A program made the position numbers and the translations under genes. 64,000 bases of DNA. It comes from an uncultured Alphaproteobacteria bacterium (lineage in GTDB: Bacteria > Pseudomonadota > Alphaproteobacteria > RF32 > CAG-239). Location of the stretch: positions 286 to 64,285 of the forward strand of contig CAKQNT010000007.1 in NCBI GenBank assembly GCA_934255405.1, read 5' to 3'. Numbering within the stretch: the first letter of the stretch is position 1; each line of letters begins with the position of its first letter. The notes below the pieces were generated by a model. The model ran no database searches. It had not been told where the DNA came from and worked only from the letters and a program-made list of their open reading frames with translations. Shown one piece after another: positions 14,461-37,343 of this stretch.

Positions 14461-14463
14461 AAA

Positions 14464-15770: not shown

Positions 15771-15805
15771 AAACATCAATCGCGGTTATCTGAATGCAAA
15801 ATAAA

Positions 15806-15836: not shown

Positions 15837-15856
15837 AAAATTGTGTATTTTAATAG

Positions 15857-20399: not shown

Positions 20400-20451
20400 T
20401 GTGCTCTCCTAGTCTGTCCTGCTGGCATTATAGCAAGAAAATTGCAAAAGT

Positions 20452-21321
20452 CTACAATCTCTCTGTCAAAAGCAGCGCCGCGCCGAGCATTCCGGCATTA
20501 TTCTCAAATTTTGCCTGCTTAAGCGCAAAAGGCTGGGTCAGAATCTCGCTGTTTGCCTGTTTGTTGAGTTTTTCATATTCAACAAACTGCGCCATTGAGC
20601 CGGAGAGCACCACCACCTCGGGGTCAAACAAATTTCCCACCATAACCAAAGCGTTTTCCAAACAGCTTTGCCAGTGGTCAAACGCCGCCCGCGCTTTCTG
20701 ATTTCCATCTTTGATTCCGCGGATAACATCATAGCTGGTTGAATCCGGTGACATATAAATTTTGGCATCGGTAGTCAAGGCGTTGCCGGAAACATAGGTT
20801 TCCAAACAGTCATACATTCCGCAACCGCACTTACGCTCGTGTCCGCTGTCAAAGCGCACGTGCATTTCTCCTGCCGAACCGGATTTTCCTTTTAGCAATC
20901 TCCCGTTAACAATAATTCCTGCGCCCACGCCGGTCCCGAGAGTAAGCACAATCGCGTCTTTGGTTCCCTGAGCGGCGCCGAGCTTAAACTCTGCCCAAGC
21001 TGCGGCATTTGCGTCATTTTCCAACAAAATCGGTTTGCCGGTCAAAGACAAAAAGTCCAGCTGATCATATCCCTCCGGCAGGTTGCCGGTGCGCCCGATT
21101 ATTTTGGTGTTCTCATTGTTGATGGGGCCGGCGGTAGCAATCGCCACGCCGTCAATCTCGTCTTCAGAGCCCTTGATTACCGTTTTTAATAGTTCATATA
21201 TGCCGGCTGAAGTTTTTGGCGTGGTTACTTTGATAATTTCGTTGGTAAATTCGCCTTTTTCATTGATGATTGCATACGCGATTTTGGTTCCGCCAATATC
21301 AAATGCCAAAACTTTTTTCAT
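20452..21321 (-). CDS. ROK-family sugar kinase (glucokinase-like)
   Basis: LAFDIGGTKIAYAI N-terminus, ENDANAAAWAE, zinc-binding CGCG..C motif of the ROK family. Confidence 0.8.
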   Translation of the reverse strand: MKKVLAFDIGGTKIAYAIINEKGEFTNEIIKVTTPKTSAGIYELLKTVIKGSEDEIDGVAIATAGPINNENTKIIGRTGNLPEGYDQLDFLSLTGKPILLENDANAAAWAEFKLGAAQGTKDAIVLTLGTGVGAGIIVNGRLLKGKSGSAGEMHVRFDSGHERKCGCGMYDCLETYVSGNALTTDAKIYMSPDSTSYDVIRGIKDGNQKARAAFDHWQSCLENALVMVGNLFDPEVVVLSGSMAQFVEYEKLNKQANSEILTQPFALKQAKFENNAGMLGAALLLTERL

Positions 21322-21399
21322 TTTTCACCTCTATATAAGATATAATCATAAATTATTATAATCATATCTTATATTTACTAAAAAAGTTTGAAAGACTGA

Positions 21400-21948
21400 T
21401 TATTTTTGTTTGGCAAACCATTCTTCAGATTTTTGTTTGGTGTTAATTCGCCACAAATAATCAAAATGGGTCTGATAACTTTGCACCGCCTCTTTGTTGC
21501 GAATAAAAAACACGCAGTTTTCGCTGTTTTTTTCCGAGGCGTGGTTTGTCCAGTTATAAGAGCCGGTGGTTGCCTTATTGGCGTCAAAAACCGCAAACTT
21601 GTTGTGTTCTATTTTGTTTTTGCTGTGCACCCTGATGTTGATTCCCTGACGATGCAGATATTTTACTTTTGAAGCTTTGCCCGCCGCCTGCAGCCGATCC
21701 GTCAAAATCCTGATTTTTACGCCTCGTTTATCTGCTTTCAGCAATGCGTCGATTATTTGTTTGTTGTTGATTGAATATACTGCAACATCAATCGTGCTTT
21801 TTGCGCCGTCTATCAGTCTGACAATTTTGTTTTCACATTCTCGCGACGGCGTGAATTTTATTTCAATTTTGGCCAGTGCGGCAGAGCACATTGCTGTTGC
21901 CGCCATAAATATAACCGCGCACTGTAGACTTATTTTGCTGTATTTCAT
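21400..21948 (-). CDS. secreted phospholipase-D-family nuclease (Nuc-like)
   Basis: signal peptide; single HKD motif HNKFAVFD and the GSYNWT motif typical of Nuc/PLD endonucleases. Confidence 0.7.
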   Translation of the reverse strand: MKYSKISLQCAVIFMAATAMCSAALAKIEIKFTPSRECENKIVRLIDGAKSTIDVAVYSINNKQIIDALLKADKRGVKIRILTDRLQAAGKASKVKYLHRQGINIRVHSKNKIEHNKFAVFDANKATTGSYNWTNHASEKNSENCVFFIRNKEAVQSYQTHFDYLWRINTKQKSEEWFAKQK

Positions 21949-22124
21949 TCTGTTGTCACAATCAAAAATTGCTAATATTGCATATATTATAATTAAAAGA
22001 TTTTAATTATTCAACTAAAAAGCTATTTATAAAAAGTTAAATTTTAGACAAAATATCTTTACAAAGGCGCTACATTGTGGTATGTTATCAATAGTTAACG
22101 TATTATAAATTAAAAATTATCATT

Positions 22125-22646
22125 ATGAATAAAAAAGAAATTTTTGGCCTTTTTGAGGCCATCACTACCTCAGGTCAGAACATCTTCGTCAATGACTTTG
22201 ACGGTTGGGGAGAACGTGCGGAGATTCCAAGTTATGAGTTTATTTCCGCGATGGAAGGTAACGGTGTAAAAAGCCATGCCACAGATGAGGAATATATTCC
22301 GCAATATCGCACCATCCGCCGTGGCAATCACCTCAAGGTTCAGCTCCGTCAAGATGGACAGCTCATCAAGCGGTTTATCTTGGGCGAGCTTTTCCCCGAT
22401 AACCACGTGGTCATTGTGACAAGTGGCGAGGCGCTCCGCTGGTTCGCACCAATCTTTGCTCTCAGATCAGAGCTAATAGATTGGCTGATGCTGGTGCATG
22501 AGTATTGCATTCTGCGCCAGAATCAAGGCAACCCCGTTCCATGGTATTGGGAGGAGGAGATGGTGGAACTGGCGAAGTTCTTCTATCGGAACAACCCCGA
22601 TAAGGAGAACGACAAAAGTATCTATGACTATCTTACAGATATCTAG
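22125..22646 (+). CDS. hypothetical protein (173 aa)
   Basis: clean ORF with AT-rich promoter region and a downstream terminator; no family recognised. Confidence 0.4.
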   Translation: MNKKEIFGLFEAITTSGQNIFVNDFDGWGERAEIPSYEFISAMEGNGVKSHATDEEYIPQYRTIRRGNHLKVQLRQDGQLIKRFILGELFPDNHVVIVTSGEALRWFAPIFALRSELIDWLMLVHEYCILRQNQGNPVPWYWEEEMVELAKFFYRNNPDKENDKSIYDYLTDI

Positions 22647-22666
22647 ATCCTTTGTCTCAACAAAAT

Positions 22667-22700
22667 AACGCTGACAGTTCAAAACTGCCAGCGTTTTTTT
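22667..22700 (+). terminator. rho-independent terminator
   Basis: AACGCTGACAGTT-caaa-AACTGCCAGCGTT hairpin followed by TTTTTTT. Confidence 0.6.
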
Positions 22701-22831
22701 ATTATACGCATACACTTTTTGCATAGGTGTTTATATACCTGTTAAAGATATGCGGCTCCGGTTTGACAAAACAAGTTCTATATAATAAAAACAATCCATT
22801 CTATATTTTATATTTAGGCGTCTTTGTTGGT

Positions 22832-24292
22832 ATGAAAAATTTACTAAAGAACAATTTTATTACTTTTTTGGCAGTCCACTTTGTTGTTTGGTGCTGTGTT
22901 CCTCTGTTGCGCGCCAGTTTGCCCATGGATAGCATAGAGGCGGTTATATGGGGGCAATACTGCGGTTGGGGAACCAACAAGCATCCGCCGCTTTCCGGTT
23001 TTCCGGCGGCGTGGTTTTATGATTGGTTTGGCAATGCCGGAATATATATATTGAGCCAAGTATGCGTTTTGCTTGGGTTTATCTATATCTACAAGCTCGC
23101 CAAGTGCTTTTTGGAAGAAAAAAAAGCGGTGTTGGCGGTGATGATGCTGGAGGGCGTGATTTATTACGGCTTCAGTTCTATGGAATATAATGTCAATGTG
23201 TTGTCATTGGCATTGTGGCCGGCAACCGTTTATTACTTTTATCTGGCATTGCAAGATAAAAAATGGTCGCATTGGGCTCTCACCGGTCTGTTTGCCGGAC
23301 TAAATGTTTTGAACAAATATGTCAGCGGTGTGTTGTTGCTGTGTATGGCGGCATATATGTTATTTACGCCGCAGGGGCGCGCCAGGTTCAAAACCTTTGG
23401 TCCGTATCTTACTTTTGCGGTTTTTATGGCGGTTGTGGCGCCGCATTTGTTCTGGCTTTATGAATATGATTTTTTTGTTCTCGATTATTTCAACGCCCGC
23501 ACCGCTCCGGTGAGCACTGATACAATGTGGCAAGAGGTTGCCAAACATTTTTATTTTCCGCTCAAGTTTTTGCTGGCTCAAGCGTTGTTTGCGCTATTGG
23601 CATTAGTCATATATTTTGCGGCTTATGGCAAGGCAGAAAATACCTCGCAAAAAATCACTCCTCAAGCGCTTCGTTTTTTGAAGTATATGGGAGTGTTGCC
23701 GGTTTTGGTTTTTGTCGCGGTTGCTTTTATTTTTGGTATAAAGATGAAAAGCATGTGGGGATTTCCGGTAATGTATATGCTGGGGATTTTGTTGTTTGTG
23801 TATTATCCGTTTCGGCTAACCGAGCGATTGTATCACAATATGCTTAAATCGGTTTATGCCGTTATGGCGTTGCTGGCTTTTGTCGCAATAATAATTATTG
23901 TTTTTGGCAAAAGTGAAAAATTCAATTTTGTCGGAGCGGAGTTTGCCGAGAATATGAATGAGATTTGGCGGCAACAAACCGGTCGTGATTTAGATTATGT
24001 CGGCGGAGAGATTTGGTATATCTCCAATGTCGCACTCTATGGAAAACATCACCCCAAGCCGGTGGCGGAAATGAATCCCAGCTATAATCCGTGGTTTTCG
24101 GCACAAGATATTGCCCAAAAAGGCGCGTTGGTTGTTTTTTCATCAAAAAATCGAATTTTTGAATTGCAAGAGACATACCCCAATATTAGCAAACCGTACG
24201 AATATAAGCTTGAAATTAAAAACAAAGCGGGTAGGATAGAGAACAAAACAATTTATTATGGTTTCTTAAACCCAGAGGAAAACAATGACTAA
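22832..24292 (+). CDS. GT39/GT83-family (ArnT/PMT-like) membrane glycosyltransferase
   Basis: ~12 predicted TM helices plus a C-terminal periplasmic domain; start at MKNLLKNNF. Confidence 0.6.
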   Translation: MKNLLKNNFITFLAVHFVVWCCVPLLRASLPMDSIEAVIWGQYCGWGTNKHPPLSGFPAAWFYDWFGNAGIYILSQVCVLLGFIYIYKLAKCFLEEKKAVLAVMMLEGVIYYGFSSMEYNVNVLSLALWPATVYYFYLALQDKKWSHWALTGLFAGLNVLNKYVSGVLLLCMAAYMLFTPQGRARFKTFGPYLTFAVFMAVVAPHLFWLYEYDFFVLDYFNARTAPVSTDTMWQEVAKHFYFPLKFLLAQALFALLALVIYFAAYGKAENTSQKITPQALRFLKYMGVLPVLVFVAVAFIFGIKMKSMWGFPVMYMLGILLFVYYPFRLTERLYHNMLKSVYAVMALLAFVAIIIIVFGKSEKFNFVGAEFAENMNEIWRQQTGRDLDYVGGEIWYISNVALYGKHHPKPVAEMNPSYNPWFSAQDIAQKGALVVFSSKNRIFELQETYPNISKPYEYKLEIKNKAGRIENKTIYYGFLNPEENND

Positions 24293-25265
24293 ATCATCAG
24301 TAAGTATTGTGGTGTCTGCCTACAACGAAGAGGGAAATATAGAGCCCTTATATAAGGAATTGCAAAAGGTTCTTTCTACCATCAAACTGGATAAAAAAGA
24401 AATTATTTTTGTAGACGACGGAAGTTCGGATCAAACTTATGAAAAGTGCAAAGCACTGCAGCAAAAAGACGCTGGTGTAAAGATTGTCCATCTTAAACGT
24501 AATTTTGGTCATGAAATCGCTATGACCGCCGGTATGGACTATTCCTCCGGAGATGCGGTGATTTTTATGGATGCAGATTTGCAACATCCGCCGCTTTATA
24601 TCAAGCAGATGATAGAAGAGTGGCAAAACGGCATGGATATTGTCCTGACCAGACGAGTAGACAATGTTGACACTTCAGCGTTTTACAAATTCTGCGCCAA
24701 GAGTTTTTATAAAATTCTCAATATGCTTTCAGATACAAAAATTCCCGAAAAAACTCCGGATTTTAGGCTGATTGACCGTAAATATGTAGATTTTTTGAAA
24801 AACTTTAACGAGCAAGACCGCCTGTTTCGCGGATTGTTGAGCTGGATTATGCCGCATGACAAGGTCAAAGTTATTGACTTTGTGGCGCCGGAACGCTTGA
24901 GCGGGCAGTCAAAATATAATTTTAGCAAAAGTTTGCAACTGGCTCTAAACTCGATTGTGCAGTTTTCGGTCAAGCCGTTGCGTTTTTCTGCATATTTTGG
25001 GATGTTTTCGGCATTTGTTGCCGGCTTGCTGGGCTTATATGTTATTGGCGAGCACTTTGTTCTTCATCGTCCGACCCCCGGCTATGCTACCATCATGACA
25101 ACGGTGATTTTTTTGGGTTCGGTTCAGCTGATTGTTTTGGGGATTATTGGCGAATATATCGGCAAGATTCACATGGAAGTAAAAAAACGTCCGCTATATA
25201 TGGCAGATTTTGAAACCGGAGAAGATATAAAAAAGGTTGTCCGCAATGGTAAAAAAGATATTTAA
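24285..25265 (+). CDS. GT2-family polyprenol-phosphate glycosyltransferase (ArnC/GtrB-like)
   Basis: VSIVVSAYNEEGNI, DDGSSD and DADLQHPP (DxD) motifs; two C-terminal TM helices. Confidence 0.8.
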   Translation: MTKSSVSIVVSAYNEEGNIEPLYKELQKVLSTIKLDKKEIIFVDDGSSDQTYEKCKALQQKDAGVKIVHLKRNFGHEIAMTAGMDYSSGDAVIFMDADLQHPPLYIKQMIEEWQNGMDIVLTRRVDNVDTSAFYKFCAKSFYKILNMLSDTKIPEKTPDFRLIDRKYVDFLKNFNEQDRLFRGLLSWIMPHDKVKVIDFVAPERLSGQSKYNFSKSLQLALNSIVQFSVKPLRFSAYFGMFSAFVAGLLGLYVIGEHFVLHRPTPGYATIMTTVIFLGSVQLIVLGIIGEYIGKIHMEVKKRPLYMADFETGEDIKKVVRNGKKDI

Positions 25266-26082
25266 TGCCGATGATTTTGGGGCAACCCGCGGCATAAATC
25301 AGGCGGTGGCCAAGGCGTATCATGAGGGGATATTGAATAGCACCAGCATTATGATTAGCCTTGATTTTGTTGCGGAGGCGCTGGAATTGGCTCAAAAAAT
25401 GCCGAATTTAGACATCGGTTTGCACCTTAACCTCACCAACGAGCGAGCAGTCTCAAACCCCAAGGATATTCCGCTTTTGGCTGATGAAAAGGGGCGCTTT
25501 AAGCATGGGTTTGTCAACTTGTTGCTGTTGTCGATATTTAGGTTTAGGCAGTTTCGGCGAGAGGTTGAATTAGAAACTCGCGCCCAGATAGAAAAGGCGC
25601 AAAAATATGGCATCAAGCTCAGCCATATCGACAGTCATCGCCATATTCATCATATTCCTCTGATTTTTGGCGTTGTCAAAAAACTGGCGCGAGAATATCA
25701 GATTCCCCGAATACGAGTGGTTAACGAAAATATATTCAATACCCTAAAGTCAAACCGAGACAAAAGCTATCTCAAAGACGGCGGATTGATTAAATATCTG
25801 GTGCTGAGGAGTCTGGCGCTGTGGAATCGTATTTGGTTTAGGCATAAGACAGATACATATTTTTACAGCATTTTGTACACTTGCAAACTTTCTCGGGAGC
25901 GGTTTAAGAATCTGCGTGTTCCGCAAGGATACAAGGCTATTGAAGTCGGTATCCATCCGGCAATGCCTGAGATTGACGAGAAATACAAATCAGAGCTGTT
26001 TGACCTAAATGTTTTGTCTCCATGGCGGAGCAAAGAACTGGAAACTTTGTTGGATAAGCATATTGCTGATGAAATCAGATGA
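25237..26082 (+). CDS. ChbG/HpnK (YdjC) family carbohydrate deacetylase
   Basis: N-terminal ADDFG motif plus the HLN.T and H.DSH.H metal-binding blocks. Confidence 0.65.
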   Translation: MSAMVKKIFNADDFGATRGINQAVAKAYHEGILNSTSIMISLDFVAEALELAQKMPNLDIGLHLNLTNERAVSNPKDIPLLADEKGRFKHGFVNLLLLSIFRFRQFRREVELETRAQIEKAQKYGIKLSHIDSHRHIHHIPLIFGVVKKLAREYQIPRIRVVNENIFNTLKSNRDKSYLKDGGLIKYLVLRSLALWNRIWFRHKTDTYFYSILYTCKLSRERFKNLRVPQGYKAIEVGIHPAMPEIDEKYKSELFDLNVLSPWRSKELETLLDKHIADEIR

Positions 26083-26501
26083 TTAGACTTTATAAACTAA
26101 TTGAAGCGATTTGGTTCAAGATTAATCAAAAAATCCGTTTTCTGCTGGTTGGCGGTTTTAATACTGTTTTTGCCTATGGAGTTTTTGCGGCTTTATACGA
26201 GTTAGCTCGTATAAATTATAATTCCGCGCTGATTTTGCAATATTTTATTACCGTAAATGTGTCTTTTTTCACCATGCGATATTATGTTTTTCAAAGTCAT
26301 GGCAATATCGGAGCAGAATACCTCAAGTCCTGGACGGTTTATATCGGAATGTATTTTTTTAATGCCTTTGCGCTGAATTTTTTTGTATGGATTTTGGGGC
26401 TGTATCCGTTGGTCGGACAGGCGGCGTATCTTGTAATTTCTACGGTGCTGACTTTTCTGTTGCACAAATACTATTCGTTCCGCGAGAAGCAAACAGCCTG
26501 A
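26079..26501 (+). CDS. GtrA-family membrane protein
   Basis: 140 aa, four TM helices, FLLVGGFNTVFAYGVFA N-terminal GtrA signature. Confidence 0.65.
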   Translation: MIRLYKLIEAIWFKINQKIRFLLVGGFNTVFAYGVFAALYELARINYNSALILQYFITVNVSFFTMRYYVFQSHGNIGAEYLKSWTVYIGMYFFNAFALNFFVWILGLYPLVGQAAYLVISTVLTFLLHKYYSFREKQTA

Positions 26502-26529
26502 TATATCTTATTTTTTTTCTAGGCACATT

Positions 26530-26577
26530 GCAAGTTTTTGCTAAAAAAAGAGGTTGCATTTTTATGCAGCCTCTTTT
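26530..26577. repeat. left direct repeat bounding the low-GC island (also a hairpin terminator)
   Basis: GCAAGTTTTTGCTAAAAAAAGAGGTTGCATTTTTATGCAGCCTCTTTT; the same sequence with a divergent loop recurs at 31807-31855. Confidence 0.7.
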
Positions 26578-26676
26578 GGATTTTATAAGAATATTTGTTT
26601 TTTGCTGAAAATATAGACAAAACTCAAAATATGTGGTAAAATGCCTCCATACATTGCAACAAACAAGGAGATTAAA

Positions 26677-28344
26677 ATGGCTGAGAACCAGAACGAAAGT
26701 GATAAAGAAATTTATTGGTGCAGCATTAATGCTACCAACAAGATTCTTGCAGACAAGATGGAGGCGCGTGGATACCAATTAAAACATGTAGGTAACAGCT
26801 GTTTTGAAAGCAGAAATATCTATGTTATCAAAACAGAAGATGAGATTTTAACGCCTGAAGTCTTTGAAAAAATGCAACAAGATCTAGAAGAGTGCAAGTT
26901 AGAAGCTACAGAAGACAAATTAAAAGCATTCGATCAGTATTTTGATGAACAATCAGTAGATAAAAATAAAGTTTATTCTCTTGTTAAAACAGGATACAAT
27001 TATGATCAAACACGTATTCAAAATAGTGATAAATACGAAACAGTAGCGGAAGACATCATTGCTTATACAGGGGATGGCCGCACAGGCTATCGCCATACAT
27101 ATCAAAGTTTGGTGTTTCACGTAGATCGAATAATAAATGATAAACGAAATTTTATTACAATAGAAGTACCGCAAAATATGATAGGTATGCTTGTTGGTAA
27201 AGGTGGTAGAAACATTAAAAAACTCGAGGAAAGATTTGGAAAAAGATTTAGAGTTGTGCAATCGGCCAAAGAAAAAGAAGAACAAAAAATACAAAAGCAT
27301 AAAGAGGATTTGCAACAACTGCGCAGTGATGTGATAGACACCGTCGGCGACTTTGTTTTGACTGCCAACGAACAAGATTTGCAAAAAGCTGTCGTTGATT
27401 ATATGGAAGTCAACAAACATTCTCTGCCTTTTATTCCTAGTGTTGAAGAGCTAAAAGGCATTTATGAGAGATTGTGCGAAGTAAAAGAGCTTAGAGTTGC
27501 CGAAGAAGCAGAAAGACGTCAAATGGCATTGGAATCATTACAAATCGATATAGAATATTCCTTTGGTAAAGATATAGTATCTTTTTCCGACGCCGATGTT
27601 GCACAAAAAACGATTGATTATCTGAATGAAAATAAAGACAAGCTTCCGGTAAAACCCAACATGGAAGAGCTGAAAATCATGCAGCAAAATTTATTAACCG
27701 AAAGAGATGAACGAATTGTAGAACAAAAACAAAGAAAGAAGTCTGCCAAAGAAAAAATGTATAGAGCGGCTGATAAAATTATTCACAATTTTGTTTATGA
27801 AAATGATCGTGCAATGCCCTCTGATGAGGTGCTAAAAGCAGGCATTGCTGACTTCTTAGAGCATAATTCAGATGATTCAGATCTTGCGAAAGTAGCAGAC
27901 AATACCGAAAAAGAAATTATTTTGTTATTGCAAAAAGAAAGACATAAAGAGCAAGTGGCGGAGAAAAATTTTAATGATACTGCCACCAAAGTTCTGGAAA
28001 AATTTTTCCATGGCAATGAAAGTCGCGGCCATGGAAAAAAATTTTTCAGTATTATGGGAGAAAACAAACAGGCAGCTGCTTATGATCAATTGGCAAACAG
28101 AATGATGGAAAAGTTGGGATTGTCGGCTGAAGAAGACTACCCTTTACCCACCATCAAATCTATTCAATATGATAAATGCCGTATAGGAATTGAGGATTTT
28201 GAGAAAAGATATTCAGGAACCTGGAGTTATGATGAATATAGCTTACCAGAAACGAAAAAAGAGCAACCGGCAGAGGCAAAAGAGCCTACTTTGGCTAACT
28301 TAGCCGCACTTTGGGGGGCAAAACTGAAAACTCCTAAAAGGTAA
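26677..28344 (+). CDS. KH-domain-containing hypothetical protein (low-GC island)
   Basis: AAGGAG RBS before the Met; type-I KH-like GxxG motif IEVPQNMIGMLVGKGGRNIKKLEERFG; rest is E/K-rich and predicted helical. Confidence 0.45.
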   Translation: MAENQNESDKEIYWCSINATNKILADKMEARGYQLKHVGNSCFESRNIYVIKTEDEILTPEVFEKMQQDLEECKLEATEDKLKAFDQYFDEQSVDKNKVYSLVKTGYNYDQTRIQNSDKYETVAEDIIAYTGDGRTGYRHTYQSLVFHVDRIINDKRNFITIEVPQNMIGMLVGKGGRNIKKLEERFGKRFRVVQSAKEKEEQKIQKHKEDLQQLRSDVIDTVGDFVLTANEQDLQKAVVDYMEVNKHSLPFIPSVEELKGIYERLCEVKELRVAEEAERRQMALESLQIDIEYSFGKDIVSFSDADVAQKTIDYLNENKDKLPVKPNMEELKIMQQNLLTERDERIVEQKQRKKSAKEKMYRAADKIIHNFVYENDRAMPSDEVLKAGIADFLEHNSDDSDLAKVADNTEKEIILLLQKERHKEQVAEKNFNDTATKVLEKFFHGNESRGHGKKFFSIMGENKQAAAYDQLANRMMEKLGLSAEEDYPLPTIKSIQYDKCRIGIEDFEKRYSGTWSYDEYSLPETKKEQPAEAKEPTLANLAALWGAKLKTPKR

Positions 28345-28537
28345 GATATACTTCATTCTTAATTAAAGGGCGGTAAGATTTCTTGCCGCTCTTTTGTTTT
28401 TCCTTGGCAGGCTTATTAGGCAAAAAAGAGGTGAGCCAGACTTGAGAAAAATCGCCAGAACTTCGGTCATTAAAATCAACTTAGTATTTTATGTCATATG
28501 CAGTGCTAATGCCGTTGAGAACACAAGGATTTAAGAA

Positions 28538-28915
28538 ATGACACAGATTTTTGGCCGAGCGTGGCTGTTAGGTCACATTGATTACGTTTGGAATAATCGG
28601 CACAAGCTACAAAACAGACATTGTGCCGAATTTGTTGTTACAGGGTTTGTTATCAATTCCTTCGTCTGCCCTTATTATGGCTACGCGATTGATAAAATAA
28701 CCCTCGGAAACCTAATCAAACTATGGAACAATGGCTTTACTTATAAAGATTTTCCATTAGTTAACTACCGAATATCCCATGGCGATAGTTCCACCAACAT
28801 CGCCTACATCTACCGCGGCAAGGTTTTTAGTCATAGATTTCCTTATTCAGATCCAGATAAATACATTCCAACGGAGGAAGTGAGGAAGATTTTAAAAGAT
28901 TTGCGGAAGCTATGA
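28538..28915 (+). CDS. hypothetical protein (125 aa, island)
   Basis: ORF only; AT-rich. Confidence 0.3.
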   Translation: MTQIFGRAWLLGHIDYVWNNRHKLQNRHCAEFVVTGFVINSFVCPYYGYAIDKITLGNLIKLWNNGFTYKDFPLVNYRISHGDSSTNIAYIYRGKVFSHRFPYSDPDKYIPTEEVRKILKDLRKL

Positions 28916-29033
28916 ATAATGCCAATTATTCATACAATCTTATATAAAGTAAAAATATTTAAAAACTTAATATTACTTGTTGCATTTTTTTTATACACAC
29001 GTATATTACTACTATAATTTCGCGGAAATAGAT

Positions 29034-30143
29034 ATGGAAAAGAAAGATAATTTGGGTTGCTTAAAACGCATAAAAATAAAAGGGTTTAAGTCTATTTCTA
29101 CCCTGAGCATTGATATTGCTCCACTGAATATTATTGTCGGTCCAAATGGTGTTGGTAAAAGTAATTTTGTAGGGATTTTTGACTTATTATATAACATAGG
29201 TGCAAAACAGCTTCAAAAATATATAGCTATAAATGGAGGAGCAAATCGTTTCTTGCATTTTGGTTCTAAAATTACAAACAATGTCTCCATTCAACTAGAT
29301 TTTTCTATTAATCAGTATATATGTAATCTTGTTTATGCTGTTGGAAATAAGTTTATATTTGAAAAAGAAGAAGGTTGCGTTAAAGGAGATTATGTTCCTA
29401 AATGTATTGATTTTACAAAATATGGAGAAGAAGAAACATCCCTTAATGCAACGTCATATTCAATTGCAGGATATATTAAAACATATTTAAGCGGTTTGAA
29501 AAAGTATCATTTTCACGATACAACAAAAGAAAGTCCTTTGAAACAATCAGCCAATAAACGAGACAATATGCAACTTCGTGGAAATGGTTCTAATCTTGCT
29601 GCTATGTTATATAAGTTTAAGAATAATGAAAAATATAAATATGATTATAATCAAATAGTTAAAACAATAAGGCTTGTAGCCCCATTTTTTGATGATTTCA
29701 TATTAGAACCAGATGAAAACGATAATATTTTATTGGCTTGGAAGCACCAAGATTCAGATGAGCATTTTGATTGTTTTGATTTTTCTGACGGCACGTTAAG
29801 ATTTATTGCTTTGGTAACTTTACTGCTACAACCTAATGAATTTATTCCTCAAACAATATTAATTGATGAACCAGAATTGGGCTTACATCCATATGCACTA
29901 AAAATATTAGCTGAATTATTTAAGAATGTTACAAGAAATGGAAAGCAAATTATAGCAACTTCCCAATCGGTATCTTTCATTAATGAATTTAGCTATGAAG
30001 ATATAATAATTGCCGATAGAATTAACGGACAATCTGTTTTTCGTCGTTTAGATAAAGAAGAAGTGCAAAATTGGCTAGATGAGTTTGCTATGGGAGATAT
30101 TTGGGCTCGCAATATTATCGGAGGTATGCCAAATGACTTTTAA
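29034..30143 (+). CDS. ABC/AAA_21-type ATPase (SMC-like, OLD/AbiEii-type ATPase fold)
   Basis: IKIKGFKSI..LNIIVGPNGVGKSNF Walker A; ILIDEPELGLHP Walker B/D-loop; QIIATSQS H-loop region. Confidence 0.7.
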   Translation: MEKKDNLGCLKRIKIKGFKSISTLSIDIAPLNIIVGPNGVGKSNFVGIFDLLYNIGAKQLQKYIAINGGANRFLHFGSKITNNVSIQLDFSINQYICNLVYAVGNKFIFEKEEGCVKGDYVPKCIDFTKYGEEETSLNATSYSIAGYIKTYLSGLKKYHFHDTTKESPLKQSANKRDNMQLRGNGSNLAAMLYKFKNNEKYKYDYNQIVKTIRLVAPFFDDFILEPDENDNILLAWKHQDSDEHFDCFDFSDGTLRFIALVTLLLQPNEFIPQTILIDEPELGLHPYALKILAELFKNVTRNGKQIIATSQSVSFINEFSYEDIIIADRINGQSVFRRLDKEEVQNWLDEFAMGDIWARNIIGGMPNDF

Positions 30144-30723
30144 AAATATCTCAGTCATTTGTGAGGGAACCACAGAAAGTGATTTTATTAAATATTTAAG
30201 CCGTGTCTATTTTGTTCCTAAGCGTATTTGCCTTAAGCCAATAATTATGGATGGTAATGTATCTATAGATAGACTTGTTTATTTTGTTCATAAAGCTAAT
30301 TATCCAATCTCAACTACATTTGTGGATTATTATGGTATTAAAGGTAATCCTCAAGAGAGTTGTGAAGAGTTAGAAGCTCTTTTAAAAGAAAAAGTTAAAA
30401 AAGAACATTTCATTCCTTATTTGCAAAAACATGAGACAGAAGCACTATGGTTTTCAAATATAGATGTTATTAGTGAAGTGAAGAATGCAACATCAGCTCA
30501 ACAAAAAAAATTACAGACTATAATTTCTAACTACCCTAATCCTGAAGATATAAATAACAGCAGAGAGACAGCTCCTTCAAAACGTTTAATGTCTATTTTC
30601 AGTAATTATAATAAAATTATAGATGGTAATAGTATTGCACAAAACATCTCTATTGAGGAAATTAAATTTAAATGTCCTCGTTTTGCTAATTGGTTATCTC
30701 AAATAGAACGAGAAGTATACTAA
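30133..30723 (+). CDS. DUF4276/TOPRIM-like small protein, partner of the ATPase
   Basis: GGAGG RBS; N-terminal VICEGTTESDFIKYL resembles the conserved start of DUF4276 (OLD-type TOPRIM-like); overlaps the ATPase stop. Confidence 0.5.
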   Translation: MTFKNISVICEGTTESDFIKYLSRVYFVPKRICLKPIIMDGNVSIDRLVYFVHKANYPISTTFVDYYGIKGNPQESCEELEALLKEKVKKEHFIPYLQKHETEALWFSNIDVISEVKNATSAQQKKLQTIISNYPNPEDINNSRETAPSKRLMSIFSNYNKIIDGNSIAQNISIEEIKFKCPRFANWLSQIEREVY

Positions 30724-30880
30724 AGCAAGACTAAGAAATTCTTGTATGATAAAAATAAAGCTCTACCGAATTATTTAATTTAATTCAAAATGTTAAACAA
30801 TCCTCTTCATCCCAACAAAGTTTAACATTTTTAAATTTAGGATTATTTTTTGTTCTTTTCCATTTCTTTGGCAAGCTCAT

Positions 30881-31471
30881 TTACGAGCTGCGTATCACGG
30901 TCTTTGTATGCTTGCACCAAAGGAGCATAATATCTTGCGCTTTTGCCTTCACCGACATAAGGAATACGAATAATACTGGATGCTTTTCTTCCTTGCGCAT
31001 AGCCAGTAATGTGGCATAAGAAATTCCAAGAACACTTGCAGTTTGCTTCATATTAAGCCATTTCGTTTTCATCGCAATTTCAAGCTCGGTCTTACTCTTC
31101 GTTGTATCCATATTATTAAGATATAGAATTTCTAATTCTGAAGCACAATCATTGATTTTATGTGCCTTTAAGACTTTTATAAAGCTATGGATGGATTTAT
31201 TAGCCATTTTAACCATTCTTGCTCCGAAAAGCATCTGGCTGATTTTAGCTTTAGTCGGAAGAACAATGTCATTGATTTTGAAATCGGTTAAAAAGAACAT
31301 ATTTTTCCAATTAACCGCAGTAAAATTGACCTCTTCAAAGAATACTTTGCCTTCAAAGATATTATTTTCAAAGGAGCTCTTTAAGAATGATATGTTTGAT
31401 AAACGGAGGTTGGCATTCTTGGCAAATCTGCAATCCTTTAATATCAAGGCATTACTCATGCCTTCTTTCAT
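30881..31471 (-). CDS. hypothetical protein with a pentapeptide-repeat-like N-terminus and an HTH-like C-terminus (possibly degraded)
   Basis: ORF; alternative-frame continuation at the 3' end suggests a frameshifted HTH (GISYATLLAMRKEGK..). Confidence 0.25.
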   Translation of the reverse strand: MKEGMSNALILKDCRFAKNANLRLSNISFLKSSFENNIFEGKVFFEEVNFTAVNWKNMFFLTDFKINDIVLPTKAKISQMLFGARMVKMANKSIHSFIKVLKAHKINDCASELEILYLNNMDTTKSKTELEIAMKTKWLNMKQTASVLGISYATLLAMRKEEKHPVLFVFLMSVKAKAQDIMLLWCKHTKTVIRSS

Positions 31472-31806
31472 GTCATCAAGAGTAACATCCGAATTAAAGA
31501 TAACAGCTTTGATGAAACGACTTTAGGGCTGTTAGATATTGCAACTCAAGCAGGAAATATCTTTGATAAGTCGCAGAATCTTGAACTAAAGAGATTGTTG
31601 TTGAAATTTGTCTTTGAGAGCCTGACTTTAACCGAAGGCGTATTAACTTATAAACTGAAGTTTCCGTTTAATGAATTTGTTAATAGTAACATTTTGACGG
31701 CACAGGCTGCCAAAGCATACGAACCGAACCAAACTATTGCAAATCAAGGCTTAACTGAACATGGTAACGAAAATGTACAGTTCGGGTATTTAAAATCGTT
31801 AGAACC

Positions 31807-31855
31807 GCAAGTTTTTGCTAAAAAAAGAGGTTACATTGAAAAATGCAGCCTCTTT
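31807..31855. repeat. right direct repeat bounding the island; terminator of tRNA-Glu
   Basis: GCAAGTTTTTGCTAAAAAAAGAGGTTACATTGAAAAATGCAGCCTCTTT lies immediately 3' of tRNA-Glu. Confidence 0.7.
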
Positions 31856-31861
31856 CAAAAT

Positions 31862-31937
31862 TGGTGATCCCAACCAGAATCGAACTGGTGTTCTCGCCGT
31901 GAGAGGGCGATGTCCTAGGCCGCTAGACGATGGGACC
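31862..31937 (-). tRNA. tRNA-Glu (anticodon CUC)
   Basis: reverse complement GGTCCCATCGTCTAGCGGCCTAGGACATCGCCCTCTCACGGCGAGAACACCAGTTCGATTCTGGTTGGGATCACCA; Glu-type D-arm; anticodon loop CTCTCAC; encoded CCA. Confidence 0.85.
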
Positions 31938-32021
31938 ATAACCATAAGACATCACCTTAATAATCTAAAAAAAATTAACTTGCAAGAAGTTTTTTGCAAT
32001 TTTATTAAAAATCCTCAATTG

Positions 32022-33596
32022 TTATTGCACATGGTTTAGCATATATACGTTGTCAAATCCCCGCTGTGCCAGAATCTGATAAGCGATATAGGCTCCGTAG
32101 CCGCTGTTGTCGTACAATGCCATTTTCTTGTTTTTGGGCAGTAGCGGATAACTTTCGCGCAGATATGGCAACGGAAAGTTTATGGCTCCGGGCTGATGAC
32201 CTCTGGCGAAGCTTTCCGGAGAGCGAATGTCCACCAGCAAAGTGTCTTTGTCAATTGCAGAAAGAGTGTGCAACTTGCCGGATAAGACTTCTTGCGCCAG
32301 AGAGCCGAGATTGTTTAGGGCGTCTTTGGCATTTGCAAATGGCGGAGAATATGCAACCTCCAGATTTATTAAATCACTTATTGAGCCGCCCCGCTGAATA
32401 AGAGCGCTTACGGCATTAATCCGTTCCGGCACTCCGGCCTTGCCGACTGCTTGAAAACCCAATATTTGCCCATCTGCGGCAAACAGCAGCTTGAGGTGTA
32501 GTTTTTGCGCGTTGGGATAATATCCGGCATGATTGTTTTGCCGCAGATACAAACGATGATATTTTATTCCTGCCGCTTGTAATTTTGCCTCTGAACATCC
32601 GGTTGTCGCCGCGATGTAATCAAAAACCTTAATAATATCTGTGCCGATAAAATTAGAAAATTCGCCTTTTTCTCCACAAATATGGTCTGCGGCAACCCGA
32701 GCTTGTTTGAGGGCTGAAGATGCGTTGCTCCAGCGCTCGGGACGGTTGGTGATTTTGTTGATAATCTCCACATTATCGCCACAGGCGTAGATATCGGCAT
32801 CGTTAGTTTGCATAAATTTGTTGGTTTTGATGCCGCCGCTTTGCCCAACTCCCAAATCCGCCATAATCGGGAGTTTAATATCCGGTTTGTTTCCGGTGGC
32901 GATAATTGCCATATCGTATTTTAGCTTTTTCCCGCTGCTTAGCTTGACCTCTGTAGAGCCAAATGATCGAACTTGCGTGTTGAGATAGAGTTTTATTCCT
33001 TTGTCCTGAAGCTCTTGTTCAACAATTTCTGCCATATCCTTATCCATGTTTGGCAAAATATGGTTGCTCATATCAATCAGATATACTTTTGCCTTGAGCG
33101 CAGAAAAAGCCTCGGCGGCTTCAATGCCGACACTGCCGGCGCCCAGAATCAGAACTCGCAAAGCGCCGGTGCCAAAATAATAATCGCGAATTTTGCCAAT
33201 GCCAGAAATCGAACGAATTGTAAATATATTGTCTCCCAAAATTCCATTGATATCCGGCCTTAGTTGCAAGGCGCCGGTAGCAATTATGAGCTTGTCATAA
33301 GTCTCGGATTGGTGGTTGAGTATCATCACTCTTTTTTCGGAGCGATCAATTCCTATCACTTCATTTTCCAAGCGAACATCTATACGAAAAACGTCGCGCA
33401 TTTGTTCGATTGTTGCGCCGATTAATTCGTCTTTACTCTTAATCAAACCCGCAAGCAAATAGGTGAGTCCGCAGTTTGCAACCGCAAATTCATCGCTTTT
33501 TTCCAGCACAATGATTTGCGCTTTTTCGTTCATTCGTCGTAGTCTGGTTGCGGCAGAAATTCCGGCGCTGCCGCCGCCGATAATCACTACTTTCAT
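32022..33596 (-). CDS. CoA-disulfide reductase/NADH oxidase-family FAD oxidoreductase with C-terminal rhodanese-like domain
   Basis: VVIIGGGSAG FAD motif; redox-active VANCGLTY cysteine; second NAD(P) Rossmann (LILGAGSVGIE); C-terminal ~100-aa rhodanese-like domain lacking a catalytic Cys. Confidence 0.75.
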   Translation of the reverse strand: MKVVIIGGGSAGISAATRLRRMNEKAQIIVLEKSDEFAVANCGLTYLLAGLIKSKDELIGATIEQMRDVFRIDVRLENEVIGIDRSEKRVMILNHQSETYDKLIIATGALQLRPDINGILGDNIFTIRSISGIGKIRDYYFGTGALRVLILGAGSVGIEAAEAFSALKAKVYLIDMSNHILPNMDKDMAEIVEQELQDKGIKLYLNTQVRSFGSTEVKLSSGKKLKYDMAIIATGNKPDIKLPIMADLGVGQSGGIKTNKFMQTNDADIYACGDNVEIINKITNRPERWSNASSALKQARVAADHICGEKGEFSNFIGTDIIKVFDYIAATTGCSEAKLQAAGIKYHRLYLRQNNHAGYYPNAQKLHLKLLFAADGQILGFQAVGKAGVPERINAVSALIQRGGSISDLINLEVAYSPPFANAKDALNNLGSLAQEVLSGKLHTLSAIDKDTLLVDIRSPESFARGHQPGAINFPLPYLRESYPLLPKNKKMALYDNSGYGAYIAYQILAQRGFDNVYMLNHVQ

Positions 33597-33812
33597 TGCG
33601 TTGACCTCCTTTTATGATTTTAAATATCGACTAAACGGCAAATTTTAAGAGGCGGAACCAAAATAAAGGATTTTTTGCTTGACTCTTCCAAATAAAACTA
33701 ATATAAAAACCTCAGATTTTTCAAATGAGATAACGAAAAATTCATCTACTCCGAGGAGTACCGCCAGTCAGCGAGGGTTCGCACACTGGCGCGTTAGAGG
33801 TTTAAATAAGGT

Positions 33813-35201
33813 TTGGCAATGTTCGAAAGTTTGACAGACAAATTAACGGCGGTTTTTAATAAGATTACTTCGCGCGGCGTGCTGAGCGAAGATGATATTA
33901 ATGCCACTATGCGCGAGATTCGCATTGCTCTGTTGGAGGCGGATGTTGCTCTGCCGGTGGTTAAAGAATTTATTGCTCACGTCAAAGAACAGGCATTGGG
34001 TGAAAAGGTTGTTCGTTCAATCCGCCCCGGACAAATGGTGGTTAAGATTGTTCACGATGAGCTTCTAAAACTGCTGGGTGAGGGAGATACTTCTCTCAAT
34101 TTCAAGGCTGTTCCTCCGGTTTCAATCCTTATGCTTGGGCTTCAGGGCTCCGGCAAGACCACCACTTCTGCCAAACTGGCCAAGCGTTTAGCCAAACAAG
34201 GCAAAAAAGTGCTGTTGGCCTCATTGGATGTCTATCGTCCGGCGGCTCAAGAGCAGTTGGCGCAGTTGGCGGGGCAAATCGGAGGTTTTTCTTTGCCGAT
34301 TGTTAAAGGTGAAAAACCTTCTGCTATCACTCGTCGCGCTCTTGATTATGCCAAAAAAGGCGGATTTGATGTAATTATTTTAGACTCTGCCGGTCGTTTA
34401 CATATAGACAATCAGCTGATGGAAGAGGTAATTGAGGTCAAAAAGATTGCTAATCCCACAGAGGTTTTGTTGGTTGCCGATGCTATGATCGGACAAGACG
34501 CCTGCAATGTGGCTAAGGAGTTTCAGGAGCGTGTCGGCGTTACCGGATTGGTGTTGACCAGAATAGACGGTTCTTCTAGAGCCGGAGCGGCGCTTTCTAT
34601 GAAAATGGTTGCCGGAGTGCCTATCAAGTTTTTGGGTACCGGTGAAAAAGTAGATGAGTTTGAGGAATTTCACGCAGATCGTTTGGCAGGTCGCATTTTG
34701 GGGCAGGGCGATGTTGTTTCTTTGGTCGAAAAGGCCATGGAGAATGTTGATCGCGCCGAGACCGAAAGGCTCGCCGCTCAAATGATGAAAGGGCGTTTTG
34801 ACCTCAATATGATGTTGTCTCAGTTGAAGCAGGTTCAAAAACTTGGTTCGCTTGGGGGGATAATTGGAATGATTCCCGGCTTATCCAAGTTCAAGAATCA
34901 GATTGAAGCTGCCGGAGTCGGCGACAATTTGATTAAAAAACAAGAGGCGATTATTCTTTCTATGACCAAAGAAGAAAGAAGTAATCCCGATATTATCAAA
35001 GCATCACGCAAGAAAAGAATTGCGGCAGGCTCCGGAGTTGAAGTTCACGAGGTTAACAAATTGCTCAAGTCTTATGAGCAGATGTCAACCATGATGAAAA
35101 AAATGGGCCGTATGGGGGGTATGCCTTCCATGGCTATGTTAAAGAACTCTCCGTTTGGCAATATGCTGGGCGGAGGAATGGGAAAATTCCCGTTTAAGTA
35201 A
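33813..35201 (+). CDS. ffh: signal recognition particle protein Ffh
   Basis: N, G (GLQGSGKTTT, DTAGR) and Met-rich M domains. Confidence 0.9.
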   Translation: MAMFESLTDKLTAVFNKITSRGVLSEDDINATMREIRIALLEADVALPVVKEFIAHVKEQALGEKVVRSIRPGQMVVKIVHDELLKLLGEGDTSLNFKAVPPVSILMLGLQGSGKTTTSAKLAKRLAKQGKKVLLASLDVYRPAAQEQLAQLAGQIGGFSLPIVKGEKPSAITRRALDYAKKGGFDVIILDSAGRLHIDNQLMEEVIEVKKIANPTEVLLVADAMIGQDACNVAKEFQERVGVTGLVLTRIDGSSRAGAALSMKMVAGVPIKFLGTGEKVDEFEEFHADRLAGRILGQGDVVSLVEKAMENVDRAETERLAAQMMKGRFDLNMMLSQLKQVQKLGSLGGIIGMIPGLSKFKNQIEAAGVGDNLIKKQEAIILSMTKEERSNPDIIKASRKKRIAAGSGVEVHEVNKLLKSYEQMSTMMKKMGRMGGMPSMAMLKNSPFGNMLGGGMGKFPFK

Positions 35202-35223
35202 ACAAATATAGAAAGGAAAATAA

Positions 35224-35634
35224 ATGTCAGTACGTATCAGACTGTCCCGTGGTGGTTCTAAGAAACGTCCGTTTTACAAAGTTGTAGCCGCTGATCAGCG
35301 CGCTCCTCGCGATGGCCGTTTTATCGAGAGATTGGGTTCTTACAACCCGATGTTGCCCAAAGACCACGCCGAGAGATTCGTTATCAATGAAGAGCGTGTA
35401 AAATATTGGCTTTCTAACGGTGCAGAGCCGACAGAAAGATTGCAGAAGATGTTGTCTTCTCTGGGCTTGGTTGCTGCTCCTGCTACTCGTGAACAGCCCA
35501 AGAAGTCTGCTCCCAAGGCCAAAGCCGTAGAGCGTATGAAAGAAAAAGAAGAAAAAGCAAAAGCTGCCGCTGAGGCTGCTGCTGCCGCCGCTGCCGAAGC
35601 TGCTGCTCCGGCTGAGGAAGCTTCTGCCGAATAA
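35224..35634 (+). CDS. rpsP: 30S ribosomal protein S16 with Ala/Lys-rich C-terminal tail
   Basis: [19 protein letters not shown]-terminus; extended [14 protein letters not shown] tail typical of alphaproteobacteria. Confidence 0.9.
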
Positions 35635-35676
35635 CAAATTTTTTAGTTACCTGCCGTCTTAAACAAGGATTCTTAA

Positions 35677-36210
35677 ATGACCGCATCAAACAAAATCTGC
35701 TTAGGCGCCATTGTCGGGGTGCATGGAATCAGAGGTGAAGTTAAAGTCAAAAGCTTTACCGAAGATGAGAAAAACCTCACACACTATGGTTTGCTTTCCA
35801 ATCTGGAGGGTAATCGCAAGTTTGAGCTGAAGATTGTCGGACATTCCAAAGAATTACTCCGTGTTAAGGTTAAAGGGGTCGAGGATCGCAACGTGGCAGA
35901 AACTCTTGTTGGCACGGGGCTGTATGTGGAGCGCTCGCTCTTGCCCGAGTTGCCGGAGGAGGAATATTACCACAGTGACCTTATCGGTCTTATGGCGCTA
36001 AATGCCAAAGGTGAAAAAGTGGGCACCGTAAACGCCCTTTATAACTTTGGCGCCGGCGATATTATAGAGCTGAAAACGGTTGAGGGACGTTTGGAGATGC
36101 TGCCTTTTACTATGGCGTATGTTCCGACAGTCAACCTAAAAGACGGTTTTATTATTGTTGAGATGATGCAATTTGCACCGGAAGAAGACGGAGCAGACAG
36201 TGAAGGTTAA
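35677..36210 (+). CDS. rimM: ribosome maturation factor RimM
   Basis: [19 protein letters not shown]-terminus, PRC barrel; conserved ffh-rpsP-rimM-trmD-rplS order. Confidence 0.8.
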
Positions 36211-36889
36211 GGTTTTTACCATATTTCCTGAACTGTTCCCCGGATTTTTGGGGAGTTCCCTGACCGGCAAAGCCCTTGATGAGGGCAAATGGTCAATAGA
36301 GGCTGTAAACATTCGCGATTTTGCTTTTGATAAGCATGGATCTGTGGATGATACGCCGACTGGCGGAGGCGCCGGTATGGTTATGCGGCCTGATGTTTTG
36401 GGGGCTGCGCTCAAGGCTCACTATCAAGGCGGACGCCTGATAAATATGAGCCCCAGAGGCAAGCCGTTGACCCAAAAACTGGTGCATGAGCTGGCTCAAG
36501 AGCCCGAACTGAGCATTATATGCAGTCGGTTTGAGGGGGTTGATGAAAGAGTTTTGGAGGCCTTTGGGGCTGAAGATATCTCTATCGGAGACTATGTCTT
36601 GACCGGCGGCGAGCAGGCCGCGCAGATTATGCTGGATGCCATAATCCGCTTGTTGCCCAACGTGCTGGGAAATTCGGAATCTATTGCTGACGAGAGTTTT
36701 GAAAACGCTTTGTTGGAATATCCGCAATATACCAAGCCGGCTGAATGGGAAGGGCGCAAGGTGCCGGATGTTTTGCTCGGCGGGCATCATCAAAAGATAA
36801 GAGACTGGAGATTAGAGCAGTCCAAACAGGTAACAAAGGCCAGACGGCCGGATTTGTGGAAAAAATATCTTGATTCTGAAAAGAATTAG
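36200..36889 (+). CDS. trmD: tRNA (guanine37-N1)-methyltransferase TrmD
   Basis: SPOUT-fold motifs ([25 protein letters not shown]); probable GTG start overlapping the rimM end (the ORF-track Met at 36173 is upstream). Confidence 0.85.
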
Positions 36890-36929
36890 GTGTACAAGCT
36901 AACCAAATACTTACAAAAGGGTAAAAGTA

Positions 36930-37343
36930 ATGAACATTATTGAAAACATTGAAAAAGAGCAGATGAACAAGCTCCTCGAAGGTAAAAATCTTCCTGATTT
37001 CAAACCCGGTGACACTTTGAAGGTTCATACCAAAGTTAAAGAAGGTGACCGTGAGCGTATTCAGGTTTATGAGGGTGTTTGCATTGCCCGCAAGAACGAT
37101 GGCTTGAATTCTTCTTTCACCGTTCGCAAAATTTCTTTCGGTGAAGGCGTTGAGCGTGTATTCCCGCTTTATTCTCCGAATGTAGCAAAGATTGAAGTTG
37201 CTCGTATTGGTAAAATCCGTCGTGCCAAACTTTATTTCTTGCGCGCTTTGCGTGGTCGTTCTGCTCGTATTGCCGACGATTTGTCTGCTGCTTCCAAGGC
37301 TAAAGAGGCTGCTGCCGCTGCTACTGCCGAAGAGAGCAAATAA
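36930..37343 (+). CDS. rplS: 50S ribosomal protein L19
   Basis: [31 protein letters not shown]. Confidence 0.9.

Follow-up and report, generated by a model that had tools for sequence, protein, structure and literature searches.

The window analysed here, a 64,000-nucleotide stretch of contig CAKQNT010000007.1 from an uncultured alphaproteobacterium (assembly GCA_934255405.1, positions 286 to 64,285 of the forward strand), carries at 29034-30723 two overlapping genes, A and B, which encode an ATP-binding cassette (ABC) ATPase and a DUF4276 protein predicted to be a Toprim-type nuclease. By its match to sequence profiles, the pair is a member of HEC-01, an already catalogued PADLOC candidate family, and it lies on an island inserted next to a tRNA-Glu gene. 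Positions are those of the window unless another contig is named, and the features are collected in Table 1.

Both reading frames extend upstream of the start codons adopted. The frame of gene A (28977..30143) begins with TTG and would give 388 amino acids (aa), and its ATG at 29034 gives 369 aa; the frame of gene B covers 30079..30723, and translation from its ATG at 30133 yields 196 aa (MTFKNISVICEGTTESDF). The lengths of 369 and 196 aa are those of the identical proteins called on public contigs. An earlier note on this DNA, made from the sequence alone, had placed a 369-aa ATPase with Walker A and Walker B motifs, and a 196-aa partner, in this interval; the reading frames are present there and both motifs were confirmed by translation. 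The same note described an overlap of the ATPase stop codon with the following ATG. The overlap is real, and it consists of 11 nucleotides (nt) on the same strand (ATGACTTTTAA, 30133-30143) rather than a 4-nt ATGA, the TAA stop codon of gene A (30141-30143) falling within the first codons of gene B. The pair is translationally coupled.

A rough calculation from base composition (~30% G+C) gives probabilities of ~5e-14 and ~9e-8 for chance stop-free runs of 369 and 196 codons, respectively. Together with profile-match E-values of 1e-26 to 1e-130, these figures show that the pair of reading frames is not a chance occurrence. A sigma-70-like promoter match was found shortly upstream of gene A; the scan returned 23 sites where 13.7 were expected in this AT-rich region, and the match is therefore weak evidence for a promoter. 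The promoter/terminator scan found no terminator 3' of gene B, and an Rfam scan of the island at E <= 0.1 gave the tRNA only; no accompanying non-coding RNA, for instance a retron-like partner, was found.

Family assignment and linkage of the two genes

Proteins A and B were searched against the profiles of Pfam, PADLOC-DB and NCBIfam. In Pfam, A matched AAA_21 (2.5e-26) and AAA_15 (2.6e-17), and B matched DUF4276 over the entire profile (1.1e-39; 137 bits, cut-off 30.2). In PADLOC-DB, A matched HEC-01A (PDLC04175) at 4.6e-130 and 431.9 bits, with residues 9-366 of the protein aligned to positions 5-362 of the 363 in the profile, and B matched HEC-01B (PDLC04188) at 1.9e-52 and 176 bits over residues 3-193. 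The next PADLOC families for A were far weaker (AriA 99 bits, mad3 82, AbiLi 74, NsnB 72, Old 61, GajA 51), and the PADLOC matches of B besides HEC-01B were noise only. A search of Pfam and PADLOC had been proposed in the earlier note, which left it undecided whether the pair belonged to a named family or was a new variant; the answer is HEC-01, and the AAA_21/AAA_15 type suggested for the ATPase was recovered, as was the DUF4276 type suggested for the small protein.

HEC-01 (Hma-embedded candidate 01) was defined by Payne et al. as an ABC ATPase together with a TOPRIM protein embedded in Hma systems (bioRxiv 10.1101/2024.01.29.577857). The window holds the same two-gene build, an ABC ATPase with a TOPRIM-like DUF4276 protein, with both family hidden Markov models matched near end to end and the two genes adjacent on the same strand. 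Embedding in an Hma or multi-gene defence locus, the setting in which the family was discovered and which is not needed for its detection, was not found here; the 5.3-kb island contains no Hma, restriction-modification or BREX genes. Whereas the founding loci are Hma-embedded, the pair in the window occupies, as cargo, a variable slot in what is left of an integrative element next to tRNA-Glu, and its host is an uncultured alphaproteobacterium of the human gut.

Relatives of B were sought by scanning one genome per GTDB species. At least 596 loci were found, in many phyla, and HEC-01 is thus widespread among GTDB species representatives. Among the best 80 of these loci, an A homologue lies directly upstream of B on the same strand in 79, the lone exception being interrupted by a contig end. 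The pairwise identities (distances) of A and of B were correlated over 74 loci (Mantel r 0.88; 0 of 999 permutations as high), which shows that partners are seldom swapped; linkage alone would give much of this correlation. Against relatives at ~91% DNA identity, the ratio of non-synonymous to synonymous substitution rates (dN/dS) was 0.056-0.059 for A and 0.081-0.087 for B. Both genes are maintained under purifying selection (0.06 and 0.08 in round figures). Proteins identical to the pair were found on at least 11 metagenome contigs, and the window proteins occur on human-gut (Hadza) metagenome contigs; the nearest GTDB genome to the locus, among the matches listed, is an uncultured Rhodospirillales metagenome-assembled genome.

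Predicted folds and conserved residues

An alignment of 53 sequences was used to identify the invariant columns of A, among which are those of the nucleotide-binding motifs (Table 1). The model of A (pLDDT, for predicted local distance difference test, 91.7) is an SMC/Rad50-type ABC head without the coiled coil, in agreement with the SMC/ABC-like fold proposed in the earlier note. The C-terminal ~30 residues were modelled with low confidence, yet they include the invariant residues W347, G354, W357, G364 and P366, and this segment is possibly a partner-binding tail.

For B, an alignment of 49 sequences with 33-63% identity to the query was used to build an AlphaFold2 model (mean pLDDT 95.3). 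The model is a three-layer alpha/beta fold with a parallel sheet and matches solved Toprim nucleases. Two methods gave the same best structural match. It is the C-terminal, DNA-cleaving part of a class 2 OLD nuclease and extends over the helical domain; this match covered 159 residues, compared with 144 for the PARIS-type comparison, at only 9-13% identity to OLD. A search of solved structures with the B-family profile gave no solved homologue and chance-level matches only (adenylate cyclase, E 0.4). As no solved homologue is detectable by sequence, the fold assignment rests on the predicted model, from which B is predicted to be a Toprim nuclease with a helical domain. The structure prediction proposed for the small protein in the earlier note therefore returned the TOPRIM-like fold and the conserved acidic residues suspected there. 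DUF4276 has been assigned to the Toprim superfamily, with Mad4 of the MADS system as a homologue (bioRxiv 10.1101/2023.03.30.534895).

Eighteen residues of B were invariant in all 49 sequences: E11, G12, T14, E15, D65, Q98, E101, E103, F107, P137, E138, N141, P148, K150, Y159, K161, F184 and W187. In the class 2 OLD protein of Burkholderia pseudomallei (Bp OLD), metal A is bound by E400, D455 and D457 and metal B by E404, T506 and E508, and K562 is the catalytic lysine (PMC6755086). The residues E11, E15 (with the +4 spacing), D65, E101-x-E103 and K150/K161 of B occur in the same order and on the same secondary-structure elements, and they would correspond to E400, E404, D455, T506/E508 and K562, respectively. 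As the best structural match is a DNA-cleaving OLD region and includes both subdomains, DNA is modestly favoured over RNA as the probable substrate of B. In Bp OLD (PDB 6NK8), ATPase and nuclease form one polypeptide and a UvrD-like helicase gene lies downstream. The fused architecture of OLD classes 1 and 2 was not found in the window, where the two functions are encoded by two overlapping genes and the island has no helicase gene. Gabija differs in a similar way: its GajA is a fused ATPase-Toprim protein accompanied by the GajB helicase, whereas the domains are split here, no helicase gene is present and GajA was matched by A only, at 51 bits.

In a PARIS-like pair, an A oligomer would sequester B, a phage protein would trigger its release, and B would cleave host tRNA or another RNA, leading to aborted infection. 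Such a target is a serious alternative, although it is considered clearly less probable than the defence nuclease described below. In PARIS, a class 4 OLD-like system, AriB is a DUF4435 protein of ~35 kDa (PMC11464382) whereas B is a 196-aa DUF4276 protein, and searches of Pfam and PADLOC at E <= 0.1 gave B no match to DUF4435/AriB. AriA is a protein of 53-55 kDa; A has 369 aa and reached 99 and 66 bits on the AriA models, compared with 432 on HEC-01A. The preference of B for the OLD region in both structural comparisons points in the same direction. The earlier note had likened the pair to PARIS and to AbiL. The shared logic of these systems stands, and membership does not: in Pfam, B did not match RloB (AbiLii) either, and A fell far below its HEC-01A score on both AriA and AbiLi.

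Table 1. Features of the gene pair, its conserved motifs and the surrounding island (window positions).
Feature	Position	Strand	Description
Left direct repeat, 47 nt	26530..26576	.	Host-type copy of the terminator hairpin downstream of tRNA-Glu
Island body	26577..31806	.	Delimited by empty-site contig L096
KH-domain cargo gene	26641..28344	+	567 aa as open reading frame, 555 aa on public contigs; KH_1 3.9e-07
orf125	28538..28915	+	Conserved backbone gene of the parent element; left edge of the variable cargo slot
Best sigma-70-like promoter match, TTTATA-17-TATAAT (10/12)	28990..29018	+	Shortly 5' of gene A
Gene A	29034..30143	+	369-aa ABC ATPase, HEC-01A type; stop codon included
Walker A / P-loop GPNGVGKS	29139..29162	+	G36, N38, G39, G41, K42 invariant; translation and 53-sequence alignment
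ABC signature-like SDGTLR	29784..29801	+	S251, G253, R256 invariant; assigned by its place before Walker B
Walker B and following LHP, ILIDEPELGLHP	29856..29891	+	D278, E279, P280, E281, H285, P286 invariant
GGAGG ribosome-binding site of gene B	30120-30124	+	8 nt before the ATG of B, inside the 3' end of A; read from the sequence
Gene B	30133..30723	+	196-aa DUF4276 / HEC-01B protein, predicted Toprim-type nuclease; stop codon included
CEGTTE	30160..30177	+	Toprim glutamate E11 ending strand 1 (strand 4-10), E15 four residues on; 49/49
D65-Y-Y	30325..30333	+	End of strand 3; first Asp of Toprim DxD, 49/49
H100-E101-T102-E103	30430..30441	+	Start of first post-core helix (101-106); candidate metal-B ligands; H100 in 45/49
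K150	30580..30582	+	Invariant Lys in helical part; K161 also invariant; candidate counterpart of catalytic K562 of Bp OLD
Remnant of 538-aa backbone gene	30881..31471	-	First 196 codons kept; right edge of cargo slot
Remnant of large serine recombinase gene, 3' end	31498..31806	+	L001 match
Right direct repeat, 49 nt	31807..31855	.	Element-type hairpin-loop variant
tRNA-Glu(CTC)	31862..31937	-	ARAGORN; Rfam tRNA 55.2 bits; 3'-flanking terminator hairpin is the integration site

The inserted island and its parent element

The island amounts to 5,277 bp, counting one repeat, and has a G+C content of 33.4%, compared with 44.2% in the rest of the window. Contig L096, from another sample, contains the corresponding empty site, in which an identical GtrA-like gene is followed directly by tRNA-Glu(CTC) and then by a CoA-disulfide-reductase-like gene. 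Window 20001-26576 is equivalent to L096 59-6634 (98.2%) and window 31809-37142 to L096 6590-11921 (99.0%), and the 45 bp at L096 6590-6634 are found at both ends of the extra DNA in the window. The island is an insertion, as proven by the empty-site contig, and the horizontal acquisition proposed in the earlier note is borne out by the empty site and the direct repeats. The hairpin loop of the left repeat is the empty-site version and that of the right repeat is the version borne by the related element L001, which is the pattern expected after recombination between attachment sites. The L001 element ends with nearly the same ~50-nt hairpin and adjoins tRNA Lys(TTT), not Glu(CTC) (window 31780-31945; L001 15768-15935). 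Apparently, the element family brings its own copy of the tRNA-downstream hairpin and uses sites beside different tRNAs.

The island contains four intact genes and one truncated remnant. In its close relatives (L001 and L009-L015), the A/B pair was found within a larger element, in which ankyrin-repeat genes, DUF3768, DUF1737, a short tyrosine-integrase gene, orf125, A, B, a 538-aa gene on the opposite strand, three to four small genes and a large serine recombinase follow one another; GmrSD-like, MmeI-like and ResIII genes occur further upstream in related elements. Window 28505-30832 is common to the related elements at 91% identity. Beyond it, window 30843-31498 matches the beginning of a 539-aa gene in L001 at 81% identity, and window 31498-31885 matches L001 15484-15873, a segment within the Resolvase/Recombinase gene at 14273-15934, at 82%. 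Compared with related elements, ~4 kb, recombinase included, has been deleted in the window.

This deletion and the truncated backbone gene would be expected if the element were dead and the pair a non-functional cargo in decay. Neither reading frame is disrupted and all catalytic motifs are present, dN/dS against relatives is 0.06-0.09, and identical proteins recur on the metagenome contigs mentioned above; decay is hardly credible against these observations.

Neither of two neighbours on the island was supported as a further component of the system. The KH-domain protein, in which one KH domain is accompanied by long, charged helical stretches, is not found in the related elements that carry the pair, and its family, often seen as the C-terminal part of 700-900-aa proteins, is rare (24 cluster representatives at E <= 1e-30). 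A terminator-like hairpin lies 3' of its gene at 28365-28394. The product of orf125 has 478 close homologues and a dN/dS of 0.09-0.10, and no Pfam domain was found in it or in its close homologues. As a third HEC-01 component it was discounted: unrelated cargo follows it in other elements, and the more distant relatives L003-L006 lack it upstream of the pair. Measured against the same relatives, the synonymous divergence (dS) of orf125 is ~0.78, more than twice the 0.33-0.37 of A and B. The A/B cassette and the orf125 backbone may differ in history, for example through a more recent exchange of the cassette.

The unrelated cargo consists of several kinds of gene. After the orf125 homologue, McrB and McrC were found in L097/L098 (7475-11156), a 200-aa unknown protein in L100-L103 (L100: 7455-8057), a 170-aa protein with an isochorismatase-like protein and an AAA_21+RloB pair in L104 (4953-8180), and a 154-aa protein with a GHKL (HATPase_c_3) ATPase in L108/L109 (4976-7597). 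Because the occupants of this exchangeable slot in other elements include a type IV restriction system and an AbiL-like pair, the slot provides positional evidence for a defence role of A and B. It is tentatively suggested, at odds somewhat short of even, that the pair is an active defence system and that the slot between orf125 and the 538-aa gene is an undescribed hotspot for defence cargo in serine-recombinase elements of gut Alphaproteobacteria. If so, the slot occupants that have no known function (the 200-aa protein, the 154-aa protein with its GHKL partner, and the 170-aa protein with its isochorismatase-like partner) become candidate defence genes.

The AAA_21+RloB pair of L104 occupies the same slot as A and B and, as in AbiL, consists of an ABC ATPase gene followed by an overlapping small gene of the Toprim superfamily, which is also the arrangement in the window. 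RloB shares the N-terminal hhhxEGxxTE motif with B, and a comparison of the B family with the slot RloB protein (hhalign) found nothing significant beyond the EGxxTE motif, at a probability of 1.2%. Similarly, A and the L104 ATPase have only the nucleotide-binding motifs in common (27% identity over 115 residues).

Carriage of the pair by a family of integrative elements that have serine and tyrosine recombinase genes, and its retention in the window though the element lost its recombinase, would also fit a pair that serves the mobile element itself. The ATPase would then restrain a toxic nuclease, used for addiction (post-segregational killing) or as a weapon against competing elements, and phage protection would be incidental. 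The classical restriction and defence genes otherwise held by the slot (McrBC and AAA_21+RloB) argue against this, as do the many chromosomal homologues with no adjoining mobile-element genes and the empty-site strain, whose existence implies that loss or absence of the island is tolerated. The Pfam entry for AAA_21 is annotated as putative AbiEii toxin of a type IV toxin-antitoxin system, and the defining study of HEC-01 found no phage defence (bioRxiv 10.1101/2024.01.29.577857); both would suit an element-serving pair, whereas one HEC-01 homologue did protect against a phage. On balance, such service is considered improbable.

Proposed function and other features of the window

The most likely explanation for these observations is that A and B form an ATPase-controlled Toprim nuclease that acts in defence, against phages or mobile elements, to which a probability of about 0.68 is assigned. 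This reading is based on the HEC-01 match, the invariant catalytic residues (K42 and D278/E279 of A among them), the linkage in 79 of 80 loci, the low dN/dS and the slot shared with McrBC. The earlier note had proposed a candidate anti-phage system; the pair does match a catalogued candidate family, with the phenotype a prediction. The locus also lends HEC-01 independent positional support for a defence role, in the form of an exchangeable slot with a matching empty site; it changes no concept and is a well-documented example of a catalogued candidate system.

A defence nuclease of this kind would operate as follows. A, an OLD/AAA_21-type ABC ATPase, would bind ATP as a dimer or higher oligomer and hold or license B, a Toprim nuclease with a helical domain and an OLD-like metal site (E11, E15, D65, E101/E103, and K150 or K161). 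When an infection cue is sensed, the ATPase cycle of A would release or activate B, which would cut nucleic acid and so stop phage replication, possibly at the cost of the cell. The defence phenotype, the A-B complex, the trigger and the substrate are each predicted here. Residues suited to mutagenesis on this model are K42 and E279 in A and E11, E15, D65, E101, E103, K150 and K161 in B.

A defence role is also supported by the protection that one HEC-01 homologue gave E. coli B, described below, and by MADS, in which the AAA_15/21 ABC ATPase Mad3 and the DUF4276 protein Mad4, encoded by mad3 and mad4, are each needed for defence in Pseudomonas aeruginosa (bioRxiv 10.1101/2023.03.30.534895). 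The Mad3/Mad4 pairing resembles that of A and B. MADS differs in being an eight-gene, methylation-based system in which mad6 to mad8 are mandatory; the genes of the island match no MADS component, mad6-8 are not in the island, and A reached 92.8 bits on the NCBIfam MAD3 model (NF047739), for which the cut-off is 420. MADS3-4 and AbiL have been grouped in the literature with ABC-ATPase/TOPRIM systems. By analogy, the pair probably works like the OLD-like ABC-ATPase/Toprim systems while lying outside any characterised one.

Several observations weigh against the proposed defence nuclease. Position 67 of B, which corresponds to the second aspartate of the Toprim DxD motif (D457 in Bp OLD), is tyrosine in 42 and phenylalanine in 7 of the 49 sequences, and the complete DxD motif was therefore not found. 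As this aspartate is replaced in every member examined, nuclease activity of B is not guaranteed. The loss is a family-wide departure from the Toprim consensus, and HEC-01B may use a non-canonical metal site with D-aromatic-aromatic in place of DxD, in which case its substrate or chemistry could differ from those of OLD and AriB. The equivalence of B and OLD residues is based on sequence order, not on a three-dimensional superposition. The published phenotypes also conflict. The HEC-01 representative of Payne et al. did not protect against any phage of an E. coli panel (MG1655, BASEL subset; bioRxiv 10.1101/2024.01.29.577857). In a later cold-seep study, one HEC-01 cluster gave E. coli B protection from one or more of T4, T5 and T7; this is the only positive report and it gives no effect size for HEC-01.

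Genomic context and the fold of A add to these reservations. In a survey of 54 more distant loci, in which families were counted among the matches listed, the defence neighbours included HmaC/DUF499 (four genes), type III methyltransferases (two), type I specificity subunits (two), ResIII (three), pAgo, DrmD and SngC, and most immediate neighbours were housekeeping genes. The defence-island enrichment of HEC-01 is weak, and the defining paper agrees (bioRxiv 10.1101/2024.01.29.577857). The fold of A alone cannot tell defence ATPases from SMC/Rad50 heads. An alternative reading is a housekeeping accessory of DNA repair or recombination, on the model of RecF with RecR or Rad50 with Mre11, that has no role in immunity. 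Sequence profiles can make the distinction, and A reached only 27 bits on the NCBIfam RecF model (cut-off 172). A grouping of the ATPase with housekeeping RecF-like proteins, or a small protein that matched neither DUF4276 nor OLD, had been named in the earlier note as evidence that would count against a defence system; neither was found, and a housekeeping role is judged very improbable.

Elsewhere in the window, a prophage-like region at 48490-55117, recognised from translated reading frames, adjoins tRNA-Thr(CGT) (48490-48565) and has a G+C content of 36-38% at ~50-54 kb. It contains a tyrosine-integrase-like gene (48696-49757, minus strand), an excisionase-like small gene, many small minus-strand reading frames, a DNA methyltransferase-like gene (53160-53903, minus strand) and a possible single-strand annealing protein gene (54428-55117, minus strand). 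An Rfam scan of the whole window added two further tRNAs and an ffh sRNA/leader to the island scan; the latter (RF01793; 33747-33799, plus strand; 40.3 bits, gathering score 35) lies directly 5' of ffh (33813-35201). Upstream of the island, a four-gene glycosylation cluster (22727-26501, plus strand) encodes a PMT_2/ArnT-like glycosyltransferase, a family 2 glycosyltransferase, a YdjC-family protein and a GtrA-like protein. As this cluster is kept in the empty-site strain, it is host DNA outside the island.

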